Shown here one piece after another: positions 8,820-59,854 of a stretch of DNA of 64,000 nucleotides (its first letter is position 1; each line of letters opens with the position of its first letter). Under the pieces are notes generated by a model. The model searched no databases. It was not told where the DNA came from and was given only the letters and a program-made list of their open reading frames with translations. The stretch spans positions 3,136,001 through 3,200,000 of the forward strand of contig OY969695.1 of assembly GCA_963701965.1 (NCBI GenBank). The letters run 5' to 3'. Source of the stretch: an uncultured Gemmatimonadales bacterium (lineage in GTDB: Bacteria; Gemmatimonadota; Gemmatimonadetes; Gemmatimonadales; Gemmatimonadaceae). The translations under genes were made by a program, and so were the position numbers.

Positions 8820-9209
8820 GACGAAACGCCTCCGAACGGTGGGTCCCAGCGGCAGTGGCTGGACAACCGGGTTGTGACGACGAAGATCGAAAAAGTATGT
8901 AGCAAGACGGGAGGCGACGCCACGAGCTGGCCACGCACGCTCCCCTTCGCACCGCTGCCGGCGGCTCAGCGCACCAACCGCCGTCGCGCCGTTTCGGGTC
9001 TGGCACCTCGGGCATTGACGCCTCGTTCGCGTCTCACCGGCGGATAGGCTGAATGACCTATACCCGACAGTAGGGACTTGTTGGCGCGGCCAGGCGCACC
9101 ACGTATGGTAGGTATCCACACCGGGCATCGACGTCACCGCGACACCATTGGGCTTATTCTGACCGGAGTGCTGCAGCCGATATCCCGATCCGGATCCAAT
9201 GACTCGCCC

Positions 9210-9690
9210 ATGAAACACCTCGCGACGGGTCTCATGCTCATCGTCGGCTCGGCTACCCCCGCCTTCGGCCAGTGGACTATCGACGCCGCCGTCGGCGTCG
9301 TCGCACCGACGTCCGGCAGTGGCTTCAGGTCAGGCCTCGATCTCATGGGCGCGGTCGAACAGCGCCTGGACCCCGGGCTTCCGCTCGCGCTGCGCCTCGA
9401 AGTCGGCTGGAATCGCACCATCACGCGCACCGATCTCGACGGAATTGTCGACCCGCCGTTGGCGGGCACTCGACTCCGTCCGGACGTACTCGCCGGCTTC
9501 GGCCTGTATCAAGTTAGGGAACTCCGCTCTAACCATACCAATTTTGGCCTCAATTTTGGTGGCGGACTCCGATACCCCATCGGCCCCGTCCAACCGTTCT
9601 TCGAGGTCCGCTATCACAGGCGACTACGCGCCCGTGGCGGCTATCAGGTTCATTCCGTTCCAGTTCGGCGCGCGCCTTCCATTTCTGTGA
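9210..9690 (+). CDS. Small outer-membrane beta-barrel protein (frameshift at ~9620)
   Basis: Signal peptide MKHLATGLMLIVGSATPAFG and amphipathic strands NFGLNFGGGLRYP, FFEVRYH. The barrel C-terminus RFIPFQFGARLPFL lies in another frame ending at 9690. Confidence 0.65.
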
Positions 9691-9740
9691 TCCGGCCGGG
9701 AGGCGGGGAGTGCTTGACGGCGCGTGCGCCGTTCTGTAGC

Positions 9741-9760
9741 CTAATGCCCATGGGCATTAG
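9741..9760. promoter_or_regulatory. Perfect 20-bp palindrome CTAATGCCCATGGGCATTAG over the decarboxylase start
   Basis: Directly visible; contains both candidate ATGs (9744, 9750). Confidence 0.6.
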
Positions 9761-11156
9761 AGCAGAGACCATCCGCGCGCGCGTACCCGCCGCGGAGAAT
9801 CCGTACCACGCGCTGCTCGAGGCGGCGGCGGCCAGGGCGCAACGGTACCTGGCGGACATCGGTGAGCGTTTCGTGGGCGTCGAAGCGCCGGCCCTGCAGC
9901 AGATGCGGATCCTTGGTGGTCCGCTGCCCGGCCACGGCGAAGATCCGCATGCGGTCCTTCAGTTGCTGGACGAATCGGGCTCGCCGGCGACCGTGGCGGT
10001 CATGGGCGGCCGGTTCTTCGGCGGCGTCATTGGCGGATCTCTCCCGGTGACCGTGGCCGCGCACTGGCTGGCCGACGCCTGGGACCAGAACGCGTGCCTG
10101 TTCGAGATGTCGCCCGTGTCGGCCTATCTCGAGGAGGTCGTGCTTGCTTGGATGCTGGAGCTCTTCGGTCTCCCGGCAGACTGCGGCGGGGCGTTGGTGA
10201 CGGGAACGCAGATGGCGGACGTCACCGCGCTGGCCGCGGCCCGGCATCGGGTCTTGCGCCGGCACGGGTGGGACGTGGAGCGCGATGGCTTGTTCGGGGC
10301 ACCGGGCGTCACCGTGATCGTCGGGGAAGAAGTGCATGCCACGATGCTCAAGGCGCTGTCGCTGCTGGGATTTGGGAAAGGTCGGGTGCTGACCGTGCCG
10401 GCTGATGCGCAGGGCCGCATGGACCCGACGGCTATTCCTCGTGTGTCAGGCCCGGTCATTCTCTGCGCTCAGCTGGGTAACGTGAACTCGGGCGGGTGTG
10501 ATCCGTTGGTGGAGATCTGTCGGGTGGCCCGAACCATGGACGCGTGGGTTCATGTGGACGGAGCCTTTGGGATGTGGGCCGCCGTCGCGCCCCAGCGGAA
10601 GCAACTGGTCGCGGGCTTGGAGTTGGCGGACTCGTGGGCAACGGATGGGCACAAGTGGGTGAACACGCCGCAGGATTGCGGGATGGTGTTCGTTCGCGAT
10701 CGGGAGGCGCTCCGGGAGGCGATGGCGATCTCCGGCGCGTACTACGGGACGACCGCGCGCCGTGACCCGATGCGCTGGTGCCCCGACTCATCGCGCCGCG
10801 CGCGGGCCGTCGAAGTGTGGGCGGCGCTTCGCACCCTCGGTCGCGATGGGCTCGCGGCCCAGATCGAGCGTACGTGTCAGCATGCCGAGCGATTTGCCAC
10901 CGGCTTGCGGGAGGCAGGGTACGAGATCTTGAATGATGTCGTCCTCAATCAAGTATTGGTGGCGTTCGCCTCGGATGCCGCCACCGAACGGGTCATTGAG
11001 GGCGTGCAAGCGGATGGGACCTGTTGGTGCGGTGGCACGGTGTGGAAGGGACGGAAGGCGATGCGGATCAGCGTCTCCTCGTGGGCGACGACGGACGATG
11101 ACGTGAGGCGCAGTCTGGACGCCATGTGCCGCATCGCGGCCCGCGTCGGGAGGTAG
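9750..11156 (+). CDS. Group II PLP-dependent (aromatic amino acid/Glu/Asp family) decarboxylase
   Basis: RFFGGVIGG, WDQNA, WVHVDGAFG, DSWATDGHKW (PLP lysine), RISVSSWATT. Confidence 0.9.
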   Translation: MGIRAETIRARVPAAENPYHALLEAAAARAQRYLADIGERFVGVEAPALQQMRILGGPLPGHGEDPHAVLQLLDESGSPATVAVMGGRFFGGVIGGSLPVTVAAHWLADAWDQNACLFEMSPVSAYLEEVVLAWMLELFGLPADCGGALVTGTQMADVTALAAARHRVLRRHGWDVERDGLFGAPGVTVIVGEEVHATMLKALSLLGFGKGRVLTVPADAQGRMDPTAIPRVSGPVILCAQLGNVNSGGCDPLVEICRVARTMDAWVHVDGAFGMWAAVAPQRKQLVAGLELADSWATDGHKWVNTPQDCGMVFVRDREALREAMAISGAYYGTTARRDPMRWCPDSSRRARAVEVWAALRTLGRDGLAAQIERTCQHAERFATGLREAGYEILNDVVLNQVLVAFASDAATERVIEGVQADGTCWCGGTVWKGRKAMRISVSSWATTDDDVRRSLDAMCRIAARVGR

Positions 11157-13812: not shown

Positions 13813-16264
13813 ATGGAAGCCGCCATCCAGGAACTCCGATACGCCGCGCGCCGACTGGTGCGCACCCCCGCGTTCACACTGATCGCGCTCGCCACCGTGT
13901 CGCTCGCGATCGGCGCCAGCACCGCGGCGTTCAGCCTTGTGAACGGCGTGCTCCTCGAGCCCCTTGGCTTCGAGCGACCGAACCGACTCTTGTACCTGCA
14001 TGGGACGGATTCCCGCCAAGCGGCGCAGATGCTCTCGCCGCAGGATCTGATGGACTTCCGGAACCAAACGCACAGCTTCACAGCGGTCGTCGCGATCCAA
14101 AGTCCGCTGAGTCTCAACCTGCTTCGCACCCAAGGTCCCGCGCTCCGCGTCAACGCGGCTCGGGTGGGCGCCGACTTTTTTTCTACGCTGGGTACCCGCG
14201 CACAGGTCGGGCGAACGTTTGCGCCGGGCGAAGACGCGAGAACGGCGCCCAAGGTCGTCGTTCTGTCCGACGGCGCATGGAAACGCTATTTCTCGGCGAA
14301 TCCCAACATCGCGGGGACGCAGATTACGCTCGACGGCGACCCCTACGTCGTGGTTGGCGTGGCGCCTCCCCGGTTCACCTTCCCCGACAACGTCGAGCTC
14401 TGGTACCCCGCGGTCTGGGAACCCTGGGAGATCGGCGATATCGGCCGCGGCAATCATTCCGAAGCGGCGATCGCGCGGTTACGCAATGGCGTCACGCTCG
14501 CTAGCGCCCAGCGCGATCTGAGCACGGTCGCGAGTCGCATCGCCCAGGCGTTTCCGAAGGACGACGCGGGGATCGGCGTGGCGGCGGTTCCGCTGCGGCA
14601 ACAGATCGTGGGTGAGGTCGAGGCGCCGCTCTGGGCGATGCTGGGCGCAGTCATGTTCGTGCTCTTGATCGCCTGCGCCAACGTCGCGAACCTGTTGCTC
14701 GTTCGGGCGGCGTCACGGGTGTCCGAAGTGGCGGTGCGAACCGCCCTCGGCGCGGGGCGCCGGCAGATCGTCGCGCCATCACTGGCCGAGAGCGCGCTCA
14801 TCGTCTTGGGAGGAGCGGTGATCGGTACAGTGATCGCCGTGCTCGTGGTGCATGTGCTGGCGGGAGGCGGGATGGTTTCCCTGCCGCGCATGCAGGATGT
14901 CAGCGTCGATGGGCGCGTGCTCGCATTCTCGGCGGCGCTTGCCGTCGCCACCGCTCTTGCCGTCGGCCTCGTGCCGGCGCTCCAAGTTTCCCGCTGGGAC
15001 CTGTCGCCCTTGCTCCGCTCGGGGAGATTCGGAGGGGCCTCGGGAAGCACCCGCACTCGATCCGTTCTCGTCATGACGGAGCTCGCGCTGGGCACGGTGT
15101 TGCTCGTGGGAGCCGGCCTCCTGATCCGCAGCTTCCAGCGGCTTACTCACGTCGATCCGGGCTTCAGGGCAGATCATTCTCGTGGTGTTCGACGTCGCAC
15201 TGGCGACAAAAAAATACACATCCGACGCGCCGAAGATCGACTTCGCCGATCGTGTGCAAGCAGGGCTCGCGGCGTTGCCAGGTGTGCAGAGCGTGGCTGT
15301 GGCGGCCAACCGCCCGTTCGACCAGGAACAGTTTGGCCCTTCCACGTTGTTCATGGTCGATGGCGCACCGCCACCCATGCCGGGCGCGGAGCCAAAGTCC
15401 CGCCTCCATCCCGTCTCCCCCGCGTTCTTTCGCACCATAGGGATGACGCTGCTGCGCGGGCGCAGCTTTACGGAGGACGAGAACCGGTGGGACGCGGCCC
15501 CGGTGATCGTCATCAACCAAGCCCTGGCCGACCGATACTTCCCGGGGGAGGACCCGATCGGGAAGCACCTGACGTTCGCCTTTTGGCACGGTGGCTCCAC
15601 CGTGCCAGGAGACAGTGCGGTGCATCCGTACGGTGAGATCGTCGGTATCGTGCGCAATGCCTCTTACGGCTCGCTCAAGAGCAAACCCGAGCCCGCGACA
15701 TTCCTGCCGTACCGCCGGTTCCCGCTGGAAGCGACCTTTCTCCTTCGCACGGCGCTCCGACCCGCGGCACTGGAGCCAGAGATCCGGCGCGTCGTCGCAT
15801 TGGTCGATCCGTACGTGCCGACGTATGAACTGGGGAGCATGAACGCGGCGGTGGCCGAATCGGTGTCGCAGTCACGCTTCTACACGCTCTTGCTGACCGC
15901 GTTTGCCGCTATCGCGCTGCTGCTGGCCACGCTGGGCGTGTACGGGGTGGTGTCGTATGCGGTGAGTCAGCAGATGCGGGACTTCGGGATTCGCATCGCG
16001 CTCGGCGCGGCCTCGCGTGATGTCGTGAACCTCGTGCTCGGACGTGGGGCCTTGCTGATCCTGCCCGGCATCGCCTCGGGCCTTGTGGGCGCCCTGTTCC
16101 TCACGCGCGCGATCCACGGTCTGTTGTTCGGCATCGAGCCACTGGATCCGCCAACTCTCGTGCTGGTGTGCCTCGTGTTCGCCACCGTCGGGGCGATCGC
16201 GTGTTGGCTCCCCGCCCGTCGAGCGGCGCGGGTGGACCCGATTATCGCGATGCGCTCGGAGTGA
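13813..16264 (+). CDS. ADOP-family duplicated ABC permease (single extra T at ~15177)
   Basis: [42 protein letters not shown] junction, PARRAARVDPIIAMRSE. Confidence 0.88.
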
Positions 16265-17377: not shown

Positions 17378-17813
17378 CTAATGTGGCATAGACCGTCGCG
17401 TCAGTACCCGGCCAAAATGCCCGCTCGTGTTCTCGTGTCGCGCGGACTGCCGGAACTGGCCGGGACTGGTGCCCACCTGACGTCCGAACACGCGGCAAAA
17501 GTGACTTTGGTCGAAAAAGCCGGCTTCCTGGGCGATCGCATCGAGCGATGACGTCGATTGCTGGAGCTGGACCATCGCCCATTCCACGCGCAGGCGTCGC
17601 TGGAACTCGCCGACGCTGCACGCCATCCTGGCGCGGAACACCCGCCACGTGCGCCGGGTGGACGCCCGCACTCGCGGCGAGATCGGACACGGTGAGTGGC
17701 TGGCGACACTCGTCGCGCAGACGGGTTACGATGGCGAAGCTCAGAGCCCAGGCTCCGTAATCCCTCGAACGCGGCACCGCCTCAGGTGCTCCCCGGCCCG
17801 TGGTGAAATCCAT
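17378..17813 (-). pseudogene. AraC-family HTH regulator fragment, frameshifted at ~17642
   Basis: LTVSDLAASAGVHPAHVA|RVFR...IAQEAGFFDQSHFCRVFGRQVGTSPGQFR split over two frames. No N-terminal sensor domain. Confidence 0.7.
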
Positions 17814-17932
17814 CAAGAAGCCGGACGGGCCCGCTGGCGGACGGTCTGAACGCCGCAACGCAGTACGTCGCGGTCCAATCTGTGCGCGTCCCCACATACA
17901 CGTGCGCGACGCATGCCTCAACAGAGGAGCAG

Positions 17933-18439
17933 ATGATGATCACCGTGAAATCGCTCGGCCTCACCGACGCGAACCTCGTGATTCAGGCGGGGATCGCCCG
18001 TGCCAACAAGATCGGCTCGCCGAGCACGATCGCCGTGGTCGATGTTGGGGGCACCGTCGTGGCGCAGGCCCGGATGGACGGCGCGTCGCTCTCGAGCGTC
18101 GCGCTGGCGTACGACAAAGCGTATACCAGCCTCTCGTGTCGGCTGCCGACGAGCACGATTACCAAGATCGCCCGGATCGACGCGGTCTCTCCCAAGTTTT
18201 ACTCAATGTGCTCGGGTGGTTCGGGCTTCAAGCGGGTGGGGTTGGGGATGAGAAAAAGCGCTGGTGGTGCTACTACTGGCGTGAGCTACCTCGTGACGTT
18301 GACCGACGTCACGGTAACCAGCATCACGCACAACTCGAACGGGACGGACGTGATTGTATTGAGCTTTGGCGAAATGACATCCAACGTGCCGGCCTCGGTT
18401 GCACTCTCAATGGCTAGCGCGACCGCTATGATCCGATGA
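17933..18439 (+). CDS. Chimeric protein: N-half of GlcG/HbpS haem-binding domain fused to C-half of an Hcp-like tube domain
   Basis: AGAGGAG RBS. IAVVDVGGTVVAQARMDGA...KAYTS (GlcG) is followed by TITK..DAVSPKFYSMC..G..RKSAG..YLVTLTDVTVTSI..LSF (Hcp). Confidence 0.7.
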   Translation: MMITVKSLGLTDANLVIQAGIARANKIGSPSTIAVVDVGGTVVAQARMDGASLSSVALAYDKAYTSLSCRLPTSTITKIARIDAVSPKFYSMCSGGSGFKRVGLGMRKSAGGATTGVSYLVTLTDVTVTSITHNSNGTDVIVLSFGEMTSNVPASVALSMASATAMIR

Positions 18440-19337
18440 ACGGTCGTACGGCGGCTATCAAAGCCGCCGGTTGCTCCTCGATGATCCAGTGTCCAGCATC
18501 GGGAATGACGGCGCTCTGGACACTCGTGAACGCTTCGCTCGCCACCACCGGCATCACCGTGCCATAGGAATGGTCGCCGCCGATCGCCAACACCGGCATC
18601 GGGAGCTTCCCCTTGGCGGCCAGCGCAGCCCGGTTGTCCTCCGCATCGTGCGGGAACGCCTTGAAGTTCTCGAAAGCATCATGCATGGCATTCGGCCGCG
18701 CGTAGATCGCCGCATAGTGCTGGCGGATGCCCTCGTTGATGCCGGAAGGGTTCGCCGACAGCTCGTTATAGAACCGATCGAGATAGATGCGCTCCCGGCC
18801 GGCGACCAGGCGCTCCTCGTCCTTTCCATAGAAGTAGAAGTGCCACGCCTTGACCGCGTGCGCGTACTCGTCCCACTTCCCGACGCCGGGAAGCGGCGCG
18901 TCGATGAGCACGAGTCGTGACATGCGCGGCGTGTGCCAGAGCGCGAACGCAAACGCGACCATGTTGCCAATATCATGCGCCACGAATTCGGCGCGATCGA
19001 CCTTGAGGGAGTCGAGCACACCGGCGATGTCCTGCGCCTGGTTCTTCTTGTCATACCCGCTCGCCGGATGGGACGAGAGGCCGAACCCGCGGAGATCGGG
19101 GACGATCACCATATGATCGCGCGCCAGATCGACGGCGAGGGGCTCCCACATGTCCCCGGTGTCACCAAACCCGTGCAACAGCACGACGGCCGGACCTTTC
19201 CCGCCATACCGGACATGAAGGACGGCGCCATTCGTGGCGATATCGCGAACACGAAACGACGTCGGAAACGGCGTGACTTGCGCGCGCGCCGCCGAGGCGG
19301 CGATCGCGACGACCGGGAGCCAACGGAGAAGAGACAT
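18426..19337 (-). CDS. Exported alpha/beta hydrolase (epoxide hydrolase/dehalogenase-like)
   Basis: LLHGF, PDLRGFG, AHDIG (Asp nucleophile), AGHWIIEEQP; signal peptide. Confidence 0.9.
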   Translation of the reverse strand: MSLLRWLPVVAIAASAARAQVTPFPTSFRVRDIATNGAVLHVRYGGKGPAVVLLHGFGDTGDMWEPLAVDLARDHMVIVPDLRGFGLSSHPASGYDKKNQAQDIAGVLDSLKVDRAEFVAHDIGNMVAFAFALWHTPRMSRLVLIDAPLPGVGKWDEYAHAVKAWHFYFYGKDEERLVAGRERIYLDRFYNELSANPSGINEGIRQHYAAIYARPNAMHDAFENFKAFPHDAEDNRAALAAKGKLPMPVLAIGGDHSYGTVMPVVASEAFTSVQSAVIPDAGHWIIEEQPAALIAAVRPFIGS

Positions 19338-19354
19338 GCCGGTAACATAGCGAA

Positions 19355-19700
19355 CTATCGGCTCAGAGAATCAAGCACGGCCAGGAGACGTTTCCACGGC
19401 GTGGCGGCGACGTGCATGCCCATGAACGTCTCGGGTTCGATCTGTTCGCGCTGGACGGCGGCCACGGCTTCCATCGCGGTCGCGGGGAATGAGAGGCCGG
19501 TGGGATAGAGCTGGATGGCCTCGGCGGTGTAGACGAGGCGCCGGCCGGGGAGGTAGACCATGAGCATCCGATCCAGCTGATCGGTGTGCAGGGGCATGAG
19601 GTCAATGCGGTTGTCGCCCGTGCCGATCGACACGTGAGCCTTCACGGAATGGATGATCGGCGCGCGCGGTGCGCGAGCCAGGCTATCGCGCACCATTGTG
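19355..19700 (-). pseudogene. C-terminal fragment of an MBL-fold hydrolase-like protein
   Basis: APHT..D.L, MLMVYLPGRRLVYTAE and terminal GMH resemble MBL-fold C-termini. No credible start. Confidence 0.5.
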
Positions 19701-19749
19701 TGCGGTGCGCGCAGGCGGTCTTGCAACACGCGGACGTTGCGATCTAGGA

Positions 19750-20214
19750 TATGATGCGCGGTTCGCCGAGTCGTTGGCGAAGGCCAAGGCCGCCGTGCGC
19801 GGTCGAGCGAGTGGCGCGGGTACCGACTGGCCGACCCGATTGCTGGCCAATGCGGAGCACCGCCCGCCTGCCACGCCCAAGGTGGCCCGACTTCTGGTCA
19901 AGAGTGGCGGCCGTGTGCTCTTTGTCCGGGTCGACGACATCGATTGGATCGAGGCGGCCGACTATTACGTCAAGCTTCACGTGGGCAGCACGACCCACAT
20001 GTTGCGCGAATCCATGTCCGCGCTCGAATCCACCCTCGACCCGGCCATCTTCTTCCGCATCCATCGCTCGGCGATCGTCAACCTCGATCGGATCCAGGAG
20101 TTGCGGGACTACTCGCGGCGCGAGGATATCCTCGTGCTCCGCGATGGGACCCGATTGCGCCTGACCCGCGGCCGGCGTGCCAAGCTGACCGAACGCTTGG
20201 GGTACAGGCGGTAG
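19750..20214 (+). pseudogene. LytTR response regulator lacking the receiver domain
   Basis: IDWIEAADYYVKLH, LRESMSALE, FFRIHRSAIVNL. The upstream part retains only the receiver tail (YDARF..LAKA). Confidence 0.75.
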
Positions 20215-20272
20215 ACCAGCGCAGTTGAGGGTTGATTCGTATACTTTGGCCCTACCCTAGCGGAGGCCTCTC

Positions 20273-20632
20273 GTGGCGACAGCCGGATCCGAGTATACCG
20301 TCGATTTCCTCCCGTCCGTTGGCCCCAGCCTCACGGGCGTGTCGTTGGTGAGCGTCGCGATGCCTCCGTCGCCGTCGATACGATCCATGTCCATTACGAG
20401 GAAGGTCGACGCTGCCTCTCCAAAACTTTTCCAAATGTGCGTGGCCGGTGTGCACATCAAGCAGGCCACCATTACTTGCCGGAAGGCCGGCAAAGGGCAG
20501 CAAGAGTACATGATCGTGAAGCTGAACGACGTCGTGGTGACCAACGTTTCGCACAGCTCGACCGGAACGGATACGATCACGTTGAGCTTTTCCCAGATGA
20601 CGTCGAACGCCCCGCTGTCCGCGGCACTCTAG
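20273..20632 (+). CDS. Orphan, N-terminally atypical Hcp (T6SS tube)-like protein
   Basis: GGAGG RBS before GTG. ITRKVDAASPKLFQMCVAGVHIKQATITCRKAGKGQQEYMIVKLNDVVVT...ITLSF is a clear Hcp1 core. Confidence 0.8.
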   Translation: MATAGSEYTVDFLPSVGPSLTGVSLVSVAMPPSPSIRSMSITRKVDAASPKLFQMCVAGVHIKQATITCRKAGKGQQEYMIVKLNDVVVTNVSHSSTGTDTITLSFSQMTSNAPLSAAL

Positions 20633-20663: not shown

Positions 20664-21056
20664 ATGACGCTCGAGTGCATCAATTCCGCCGATCTGCCGA
20701 CCCCCACCACGTATACGCAGGTCGTCGTCGCGACGGGAAGCAAACTGGTATTCGTATCGGGTCAGGAGCCCGAAGACATACACGGCAAGCTCGTTGGCCC
20801 CGGAGATCTCGCGGCTCAGGCTCGCCAGGTATTTGGCAACCTCGGCCGTGCACTGGCTGCTGCCGGTGCCCGGCCTGATCAGGTCTGCACGATCACCATC
20901 TATGTCGTCAACTACGACCCTAGACCGATGCTTGGCGATTATCGAAGCAGCCCGGGTCGCGCTGTTCGGAGATCACAAGGCTGCCGACGTGGTGGTCGGC
21001 GTCGCAACGCTGTCCTCGGCTACCTGATCGAGGTCGACGCGATCGCCGTTGTTTGA
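20664..21056 (+). CDS. RidA/YjgF family protein (two compensating frameshifts at ~20920 and ~21017)
   Basis: YTQVV, VFVSGQ, QARQVFGNL, LIEVDAIAV. The middle AIIEAARVALFGDHKAADVVVGV is in another frame. Confidence 0.8.
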   Translation: MTLECINSADLPTPTTYTQVVVATGSKLVFVSGQEPEDIHGKLVGPGDLAAQARQVFGNLGRALAAAGARPDQVCTITIYVVNYDPRPMLGDYRSSPGRAVRRSQGCRRGGRRRNAVLGYLIEVDAIAVV

Positions 21057-23688: not shown

Positions 23689-24006
23689 ATGCCACGGTCA
23701 TCCCGAAAGGCACCACCCGCGCGCCGCCGCCGGCCGCCAACAACGGCCGACGCCGCGTCGGTCGTCGCTGAGGCCAGGCTCTTCATGAATGGCCGCAGCC
23801 AGGCGGTCCGGCTGCCGGCGGCATACCGGTTCACCGGGACGTCCGTGTACGTGAAGCGGTGGCGTGGGGCCGTGATTCTGCTGCCCAAGCGGAACCCGTG
23901 GGCAGCGCTGATCGACAGCCTTGGGGGATTTTCCGAGGACTTCTTGGCGGACCGCGCACAGCCGGCACCGCAAGAGCGGCCGGAGCTGGACGCGCTGTTC
24001 GACTAA
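23689..24006 (+). CDS. vapB: AbrB/SpoVT-type antitoxin
   Basis: ARLFMNGRSQAVRLPAAYRF, FSEDFL. Confidence 0.9.
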   Translation: MPRSSRKAPPARRRRPPTTADAASVVAEARLFMNGRSQAVRLPAAYRFTGTSVYVKRWRGAVILLPKRNPWAALIDSLGGFSEDFLADRAQPAPQERPELDALFD

Positions 24007-24018
24007 GGGCGCGCGGTC

Positions 24019-24432
24019 ATGCATATCCTCGACACAAGCACCTGCATCATGCTCATTCGCCGGCGAACCGAGGCGGCGGAGCGCGTGCTGCGACGGCTCA
24101 CGCGGCACGCGGTCACGGACGTTGCTGTCTCGGCACTCACCGTCGCGGAGTTGGAGCACGGGGTGGCGAAGAGCGCAGCGCCGGCGCAGAATCGGGCTCG
24201 ACTCGACCAGTTCCTTCTCCCGATCCAGATTCTACCGTTCGACAATGCGGCGGCCCTTGAGTATGGGGCCATCCGAGCCGATCTCGAACGGTGCGGGGTG
24301 GGGATCGGGCCGATCGACACGCTGTTGGCGGCGCAGGCCCGAAGCCTCGAGGCGGTGATGGTGACGGAGAACGCGGCCGAGTTTGAGCGGGTGCCGCGAC
24401 TCGTGGTCGAGGACTGGACGCGGATCCCCTAG
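24019..24432 (+). CDS. vapC: PIN-domain toxin
   Basis: ILDTSTC, AELEHG, IGPIDTLLAAQA, VTEN..EFERV. Confidence 0.92.
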   Translation: MHILDTSTCIMLIRRRTEAAERVLRRLTRHAVTDVAVSALTVAELEHGVAKSAAPAQNRARLDQFLLPIQILPFDNAAALEYGAIRADLERCGVGIGPIDTLLAAQARSLEAVMVTENAAEFERVPRLVVEDWTRIP

Positions 24433-25332: not shown

Positions 25333-25695
25333 TCACCCGCCAATCGTTTCCTGGCTGGCCACCACCCGGCTGCCCGCTTCCGGCTGGTCGTAGAACTCCC
25401 AGCGCAGCATGTATGGCGGCCGATCGATCAACCATAGTCGGCTCGCCAGCCTGCGCGTCGTCGCGTCCCGATCGTCCACAACCCACACGTCGCGGTACTG
25501 CTTGCCGAACACCTCGATGTCCTCGCGGCGCTTCGTCTCATACAGATGCGTTTCCCCGGAGCCTTGTCCATCGGACCACAAGCGCGCGCGATAGACCACT
25601 CCCAGCCGTCGCGGCAGGAATTCCACCATGATGTCGGCGGTCGGCCTATGGAACGCCTGCGGGTCGTGCGGCGTGTCGGGTGACGATGTTTCCAC
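25333..25695 (-). pseudogene. C-terminal fragment of a hypothetical protein, starting at the repeat boundary
   Basis: Protein-like composition, no RBS, and a 5' end that abuts the 139-bp repeat. Confidence 0.4.
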
Positions 25696-25832
25696 ACCAC
25701 CAAAATAAGGGCTCGCACTATTGCTCCACGCTCACGGGGACGATCATGTGGTACACCACGTACTGACGTTCCGTGGCCCGAATAGGAGCGTGCCCGGGCG
25801 CCGTCAGCATCAGCGAGCGTACGACGATCAAC
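25694..25832. repeat. 139-bp direct repeat, copy 1
   Basis: Aligns ungapped to 28532-28670 with 8 mismatches by manual count. Confidence 0.92.
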
Positions 25833-28531: not shown

Positions 28532-28670
28532 ACACCACCCAACTAAGGGCTCGCACTATTGCTCCGCGCTTACGGGGACGATCATGTTGTACACCACGTA
28601 CTGACGTTCCGTGGCCCGAATAGGAGCGTGCCCGGGCGCCGTGAGCATCAGCGAGCGTTCGACGGTCAAC
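28532..28670. repeat. 139-bp direct repeat, copy 2 (3' end of the 28556-29308 gene)
   Basis: Aligns to 25694-25832. Confidence 0.92.
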
Positions 28671-53943: not shown

Positions 53944-53991
53944 GGTCCAATGAAGTTTTGTCGTGATCTATCACGTCGCGTGATCGATGAA
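53944..53991 (-). promoter_or_regulatory. LysR operator/-35 upstream of susC
   Basis: 40/48 identical to 59807-59854. Contains the T-N11-A dyad ATCACG-N3-CGTGAT and minus-strand TTGGAC. Confidence 0.8.
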
Positions 53992-59806: not shown

Positions 59807-59854
59807 GGTCCAATGAAGATTTATCGTGATCTATCAGGAAACCTTATCGATGAA
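59807..59854 (-). promoter_or_regulatory. LysR operator/-35 between lysR and E1 alpha
   Basis: GGTCCAATGAAG.TTT.TCGTGATCTATCA-N9-ATCGATGAA is shared with 53944-53991 and overlaps the lysR ATG. Confidence 0.8.

Follow-up and report, generated by a model that had tools for sequence, protein, structure and literature searches.

The window analysed here, the whole stretch of 64,000 nucleotides, contains an open reading frame on the plus strand, at 17933-18439, in which the front of a GlcG/HbpS gene runs into the back of an Hcp-like gene. The frame is real in the assembly and encodes 168 amino acids, with neither a frameshift nor a stop in its 168 codons, though several genes nearby are broken; that the two pieces are in frame is unsurprising, as a third of all same-strand joins would keep the frame. 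Pfam finds the HbpS-like domain PF03928 at amino acids 9-81 (profile positions 2-74 of 128, E 5.7e-17; 62.4 bits, above the gathering cut-off of 25) and the T6SS_HCP domain PF05638 at amino acids 74-149 (profile positions 51-126 of 129, E 1.1e-8; 35.9 bits, above the cut-off of 23.5), each match covering about 57-59% of its profile. A sequence search of the PDB matches EfgA, HbpS and PduO to amino acids 7-82 and Hcp chains to amino acids 70-146. The frame is preceded by a Shine-Dalgarno sequence, GAGGAG, at 17924-17929 (+), which came with the GlcG gene, the DNA likeness to an intact GlcG locus (L022) beginning at 17925. Translation probably begins at the second ATG, at 17936, as in the relatives and in the database call of 167 amino acids. 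A promoter and terminator scan gave nothing above chance. The earlier note on this DNA had described an open frame with a ribosome-binding site, a GlcG/HbpS front and an Hcp back, and the Pfam and PDB comparisons bear this out, including its suggested check of the C-terminal half against Hcp. By full-domain tests on its sequence, however, the fusion belongs to neither family.

The front half, at 17936-18173 (+), comprises 79 codons from the 5' end of a GlcG/HbpS (DUF336) gene and lacks the ∼58 codons with which genes of this family end. Residues 2-80 are identical to the full-length GlcG proteins P0003 and P0004 at 77 of 79 positions, and the DNA is 91% identical to the two intact GlcG genes L022 and L023 up to 18173. 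Against L022, dN is 0.018 and dS 0.32, a dN/dS of about 0.06, so nothing in the front half points to remodelling into a new domain; the low dN relative to dS is what an ordinary, conserved and recently cut GlcG gene would show. The nearest relatives form the P0003 cluster, of 134-152 amino acids, one member of which is labelled Gemmatimonadaceae (HSY82382.1). A protein search with the fusion, covering lengths of 92-294 amino acids, gave 362 candidates and 184 matches, of which the best 120 were compared. The lost GlcG part (∼58 residues) is highly conserved across 120 relatives.

What the truncation removes can be read against the known GlcG-family fold, an alpha-beta2-alpha3-beta2-alpha arrangement with a four-stranded sheet (PMC4923194, in its accessible part). 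The fusion breaks after amino acid 80 and falls short of this complete domain of ∼135 amino acids: unlike members of the GlcG/HbpS/DUF336 family (PF03928; EfgA 6BWS, HbpS 3FPV, the PduO C-domain 5CX7), it has Hcp sequence in place of the second pair of strands, the final helix and the pocket serine and aspartate. The EfgA ligand pocket consists of K57, S114 and D121 (accessible part of PMC8153426). The fusion keeps the lysine of the KAYT motif (K62, matching EfgA K57, in a numbering that assumes a 20-residue tag in 6BWS), and the pocket is incomplete because the residues matching S114 and D121 lie in the lost half. The earlier note had named haem binding as a property of these proteins, which is doubtful here. 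His18 is the haem ligand in PduO, according to the portion of PMC4923194 available; Asn14 of the fusion aligns with it, the N-terminal half has no histidine, and P0003, the closest intact relative, has no histidine at all. Judged from these residues, haem binding appears unsupported even for the parent GlcG protein.

The junction lies at 18173-18174, with the C at 18173 fitting both sides, as placed by base-by-base comparison with L022 and L023. Likeness to the intact GlcG genes stops sharply at 18173, after codon 80. At this break 107 of 115 anchored relatives (among the matches listed) read on with QPGG; the fusion reads RIDA. The change from GlcG to Hcp that the earlier note described is thus there, but not at ∼18150 where it had been put, and the TITK word that was taken for an Hcp motif is GlcG sequence, since the DNA likeness to GlcG reaches 18173. 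We saw neither a repeat nor the end of a mobile element at the junction, so a recombination mechanism can only be inferred. A crossover at a shared ITK-like word was considered and rejected: GlcG sequence runs 7 nt beyond that word, whose two copies do not lie in the same register.

The GlcG 3' half is absent from the rest of the 5.1 Mb assembly, and so is a second 5' end of the donor gene of the back half, whose N-terminal profile matches only the copy at 20273 described below. Pieces missing from the genome fit a deletion and not an inversion, which would have left partner halves; none was found anywhere in the genome.

The back half, at 18173-18406 (+), consists of 78 codons, the 3' two-thirds of a short gene related to Hcp, which we call mini-Hcp, with the first ∼42 codons gone (alignment A5). 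The earlier note did not have this donor family, of which a whole-looking copy lies downstream in the window, at 20273-20632 (+). This gene, P0122, encodes 119 amino acids from a GTG start, has GGAGG upstream at 20262-20266, and matches PF05638 at amino acids 33-110 (E 1.4e-20; 74.3 bits against the cut-off of 23.5). Residues 81-158 of the fusion are 42-51% identical to P0122 and to two database proteins, P0140 and P0147 (40/78 with P0140, 35/76 or 46% with P0122, 32/76 with P0147), and 21/66 identical to a canonical Hcp, P0124. Because the back half is nearer to mini-Hcp than to canonical Hcp, the donor would be a mini-Hcp gene minus its first ∼42 codons; the C-terminal two-thirds of the family are present in the fusion, and the N-terminal ∼42 residues are replaced by GlcG. 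Like P0140, the fusion has the HNxNGTD motif, and the TSNxP ending is common to the fusion, P0122 and P0140. The fusion differs from mini-Hcp also in a ten-codon tail beyond the stop position of the paralogue (18407-18439, +), where TCA stands in place of the paralogue's TAG and DNA likeness ends at 18422/20645; an opposite-strand hydrolase gene overlaps, at its 3' end, with the last four tail codons and the TGA. The reverse case, in which the paralogue's TAG is a premature stop, was rejected: P0140 and P0147 end within 2 residues of the same point.

A profile of the two window copies was compared with 1.84 billion representatives and gave 1338 matches, the best 150 of which were compared. Full-length mini-Hcp counterparts among the matches listed number two: P0140 (121 amino acids, start missing) and P0147 (124 amino acids), both singletons at 90% clustering. 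P0122, P0140 and P0147 are mutually 43-50% identical over 115-117 residues (P0122 shares 59/117 with P0140 and 54/117 with P0147), and of the 147 further proteins listed, none has their common N-terminus, the N-terminal profile having been built from these three themselves. Further mini-Hcp genes were sought in several collections: nothing new was found in genome contigs, in viral contigs (where a degenerate pattern gave 47 matches, none related), or in 400 phylum genomes at E<=1e-12, and 54 plasmid records matched, none covering 80%. The family so far comprises four sequences including the fused copy. No family name was found for it, and look-ups returned neither this family nor the GlcG/mini-Hcp fusion.

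Compared with Hcp/TssD of type VI secretion systems (PF05638, TIGR03344; P. aeruginosa Hcp1 1Y12, E. tarda EvpC), the fusion shares the core that begins with the K..D..SP helix, includes the RK strand and extends to the S.SF strand, and hhalign gives a probability of 98.9% over 77 columns. Mini-Hcp has a shorter and different N-terminus than the T6SS protein and ends ∼20 residues short of its C-terminus. At the TIGR03344 (TssD) cut-off of 58.9 the fusion has no match and P0122, at 34.4, stays below, and the full Hcp beta-barrel of ∼160 amino acids with both terminal segments is not present in the fusion (alignment A4). In EvpC, charged termini are required for secretion (PMC2944823, for the Hcp fold and the role of the termini, in its accessible part). 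The ESM Atlas returns Hcp clusters for mini-Hcp. Judging by sequence, mini-Hcp (119-124 amino acids) looks like a real protein with a predicted Hcp fold, in a single known gene context that appears to lie outside any T6SS cluster, and we lean slightly towards a real, functional family.

No T6SS family was found among the window ORFs scanned. The genome has full-length Hcp genes at C1:4420607-4421005 (L001) and C1:4757368-4757766 (L002), more than 1.2 Mb from the window. The first presumably sits between TssC-like and ImpE-like ORFs; the second has no TssC/ImpE-like neighbours in the 3.4 kb read. An Hcp match was present in 69 of 300 family genomes, a set that includes the unpublished G161, one stretch of which is a row of alignment A3. 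Of the 31 Hcp frames inspected, 2 belong to this genome and 29 to relatives, and all 19 that were parsed are full-length Hcp of 154-183 amino acids, a count that covers the parsed frames only, the other 12 lying outside the motif filter.

The fusion stands among damaged genes. Upstream, an AraC gene at 17381-17820 (-), with an HTH_18 domain, is frameshifted and apparently cut at its 5' end (that limit is approximate), its paralogues having long upstream frames. Convergent with the fusion is a whole-looking alpha/beta hydrolase gene at 18426-19337 (-; PF00561, profile 1-244 of 245). Beyond it, 19355-19753 (-) holds the 3' end only of a longer gene, which has no Pfam or NCBIfam name; its paralogues extend upstream, and likeness to them starts at 19753. 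At 19753-20214 (+) follows a LytTR response regulator without a receiver domain (PF04397 only), the paralogues of which have a receiver-like stretch upstream. There is thus a second join at ∼19753, 1.6 kb from the junction, where two 5'-truncated genes stand head to head. Directly behind the mini-Hcp gene lies a frameshifted RidA-family gene at 20664-21056 (+; PF01042, profile 8-78 of 121).

Other features of the window were noted alongside. An IS4/5 transposase fragment (2051-2347) and a MazE-like antitoxin with a PIN-domain partner (23689-24432) are consistent with an accessory region. A direct repeat of 139 nt, 94% identical, at 25694-25832 and 28532-28670 (2838 nt apart) flanks genes for a GntR-aminotransferase regulator, DoxX and LysE and may be an insertion boundary. 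A 48-nt repeat (83%) at 53944-53991 and 59807-59854, close to where a TonB-dependent receptor gene and a LysR gene begin, is a possible shared regulatory site. A single frame at 9078-11156 (+) enters a PLP-dependent decarboxylase and is probably two genes joined by a frameshift; its front, which has no Pfam match, we take to be a signal peptide and an outer-membrane barrel.

Searches for a second fusion of this kind returned none. Among the matches listed (best 120 of 184), the only protein with both Pfam domains is the window's own record; the 119 other relatives align from the start to at most amino acid 98, and past amino acid 80 only loosely. A search with the C-terminal half gave 50 candidates and returned only the fusion's own record. 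In 60 relatives and in 400 phylum genomes nothing matched across the junction, the longest match in the phylum genomes covering amino acids 7-97; all of 17 metagenome loci stop at or before amino acid 98, and the single genome locus returned covers amino acids 32-76 only. GlcG sequence occurs in 0 of the 149 other listed representative matches to the mini-Hcp profile, and 136 plasmid records matched the fusion, none covering 80%. In 200 family genomes (four unpublished), the listed matches, the best of a longer list with 318 weaker ones, are scattered single genes or gene pairs, none covering the fusion. The literature, judged by title and the start of the abstract, gave no fused DUF336-Hcp protein. 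The 90% cluster of the fusion has one member, on one contig. These searches sampled rather than exhausted the databases: the word-index protein searches missed P0140 and P0147, and in the 50% representative library a fusion might go unnoticed within a GlcG cluster, as the rows of that library do not include even the fusion of this window. Full-length homologues across the junction, which the earlier note had proposed to look for, were not found in the searches run.

Taken with the state of the neighbouring genes, these results lead us to regard the fusion as probably the scar of a recent deletion, its product a non-functional and unstable hybrid. The reading has its observed basis in the origin of each half, a base-sharp break, the absence of the lost pieces from the assembly and the truncated genes nearby. 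In the proposed course of events, an accessory region gains and loses modules, and a single illegitimate recombination would have removed the GlcG 3' end, any intervening DNA and the mini-Hcp 5' end. What remained would be in frame by chance, under the inherited GlcG ribosome-binding site, and so may be translated. From the GlcG fold the hybrid would lack the last helix and two strands out of four, from the EfgA-type pocket two residues out of three, and from the Hcp barrel its N-terminal portion. In favour of the scar are a front half almost identical to full-length GlcG, the strong conservation of the GlcG part that was lost, the low confidence of the structure models described below, a second join and a cut AraC gene within 1.6 kb, against at most 1 of 101 core orthologues with an unexplained 3' loss, a frame that continues past the paralogue's stop, and the lack of a second fusion in our searches. 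Against it stand the good ribosome-binding site, the unbroken frame and a junction uncovered by contigs. Of the two readings that the earlier note had offered, the recombination scar is the one that finds support; the chimeric oligomer does not.

Could the junction instead be a product of assembly, with the consensus stitching two places or strains together at 18173 while the cell keeps a whole GlcG gene? The genome is one contig of 5.1 Mb with 4.23% contamination, and a stretch of 4 kb holds several joins. In 3 of 3 sequencing runs the depth at 18170-18336 is 0, with no contig across the junction. Systematic 1-bp insertions add to the suspicion. CATTCT, a word that occurs 27 times per 100 kb, is the context at 5 of 12 inspected frameshift sites (window positions 15177, 22174 and ∼32300, and core genes at C1:2532717 and 2839224), likely a systematic base-calling error that would point to an uncorrected long-read consensus; frameshifts here should therefore not be taken for pseudogenes without reads. 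However, the errors seen are of single bases. We compared 20 stretches of a same-genus genome, with 184 predicted proteins, 101 of which had an orthologue-like match: 4 showed a frame change and 4 partial cover (two short of an N-terminal stretch only, one explained by a 1-bp shift and one unexplained), which leaves an unexplained 3' loss in at most 1 of 101. Moreover, five contig pieces from run X1, on both sides of the junction and spanning 17544 to 20599, are identical to the window, although none bridges the junction; two of them (20162-20312 and 20449-20599) match the mini-Hcp region without difference. X1 shares 0.12 of the window's words, X2 and X3 next to none, and X1 may be the source sample. 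The combination of single-base errors with rare large joins in core genes favours a real, locally scrambled accessory region, though it is not proof, and we consider a misjoin unlikely.

A deletion scar is also to be weighed against a newborn functional chimera, in which the Hcp strands of a T6SS-independent mini-Hcp would complete the sheet of a half GlcG sensor, giving an oligomer that folds and has a ligand site of a new kind. This reading draws on the open frame with its ribosome-binding site, on the retained pocket lysine K62, and on the modelled order of elements: the Hcp piece is predicted to give helix-strand-strand-strand-helix, roughly the order of what GlcG has lost, and its first helix aligns loosely with the replaced GlcG helix (amino acids 81-95). 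The structure model, which the earlier note had named as a check, gives it little help. AlphaFold2 returned a pLDDT of 32 from the single sequence and, from a 16-row block alignment, a pLDDT of 45 and a pTM of 0.35; in secondary structure the model resembles the two parents placed next to each other, and no core common to both is modelled with confidence. Low model confidence is itself weak evidence, because the alignment is shallow. Foldseek with the low-confidence model found no match at E<=0.001 (the top rows are Hcp chains, with EfgA at rank 49), the ESM Atlas had no usable match for the fusion, and a complex prediction with four copies, scoring 0.15 with the mark at 0.42, counts neither way. 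The predicted cut of both folds through their cores, the single occurrence, an N-terminal half without adaptive change, the lost stop and the broken neighbours make a functional chimera very improbable.

Least probable of all, hardly to be expected, is that mini-Hcp genes are modular acceptors swapping N-terminal cargo by repeated recombination, this ORF being one swap: Hcp domains do occur in multi-domain proteins, and the two mini-Hcp copies lie 2.3 kb apart and are more alike at the 3' end (71% DNA identity over 132 nt; dN 0.29 in the 3' part against 0.86 in the 5' part), but the other three members have one common N-terminus, the break falls inside both the Hcp domain and GlcG and not at a domain edge, and the junction has no repeat.

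As a deletion scar, the fusion is ordinary, an example of how one broken locus can put a two-Pfam architecture into the databases. If the hybrid did fold, it would be a natural sub-domain join of two unrelated folds, useful for studying the origin of new folds. The more likely gain is the mini-Hcp family, a compact Hcp variant worth following, and not the fusion. If functional, mini-Hcp would be the smallest Hcp unit and would test ring formation without the terminal segments that EvpC needs, as described in the part of PMC2944823 available.

The same profile search turned up a separate group of proteins with six Hcp domains in one chain, which account for 15 of the 149 listed representatives (including P0139, P0141-P0146, P0148, P0149, P0151-P0154 and P0174). 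A literature search found no paper on tandem Hcp domains with type VI secretion in planctomycetes. Several of these chains also carry Ig-like, PKD or RTX domains, and one cluster member is labelled Gemmataceae; the six-Hcp chains are candidate single-chain Hcp rings.
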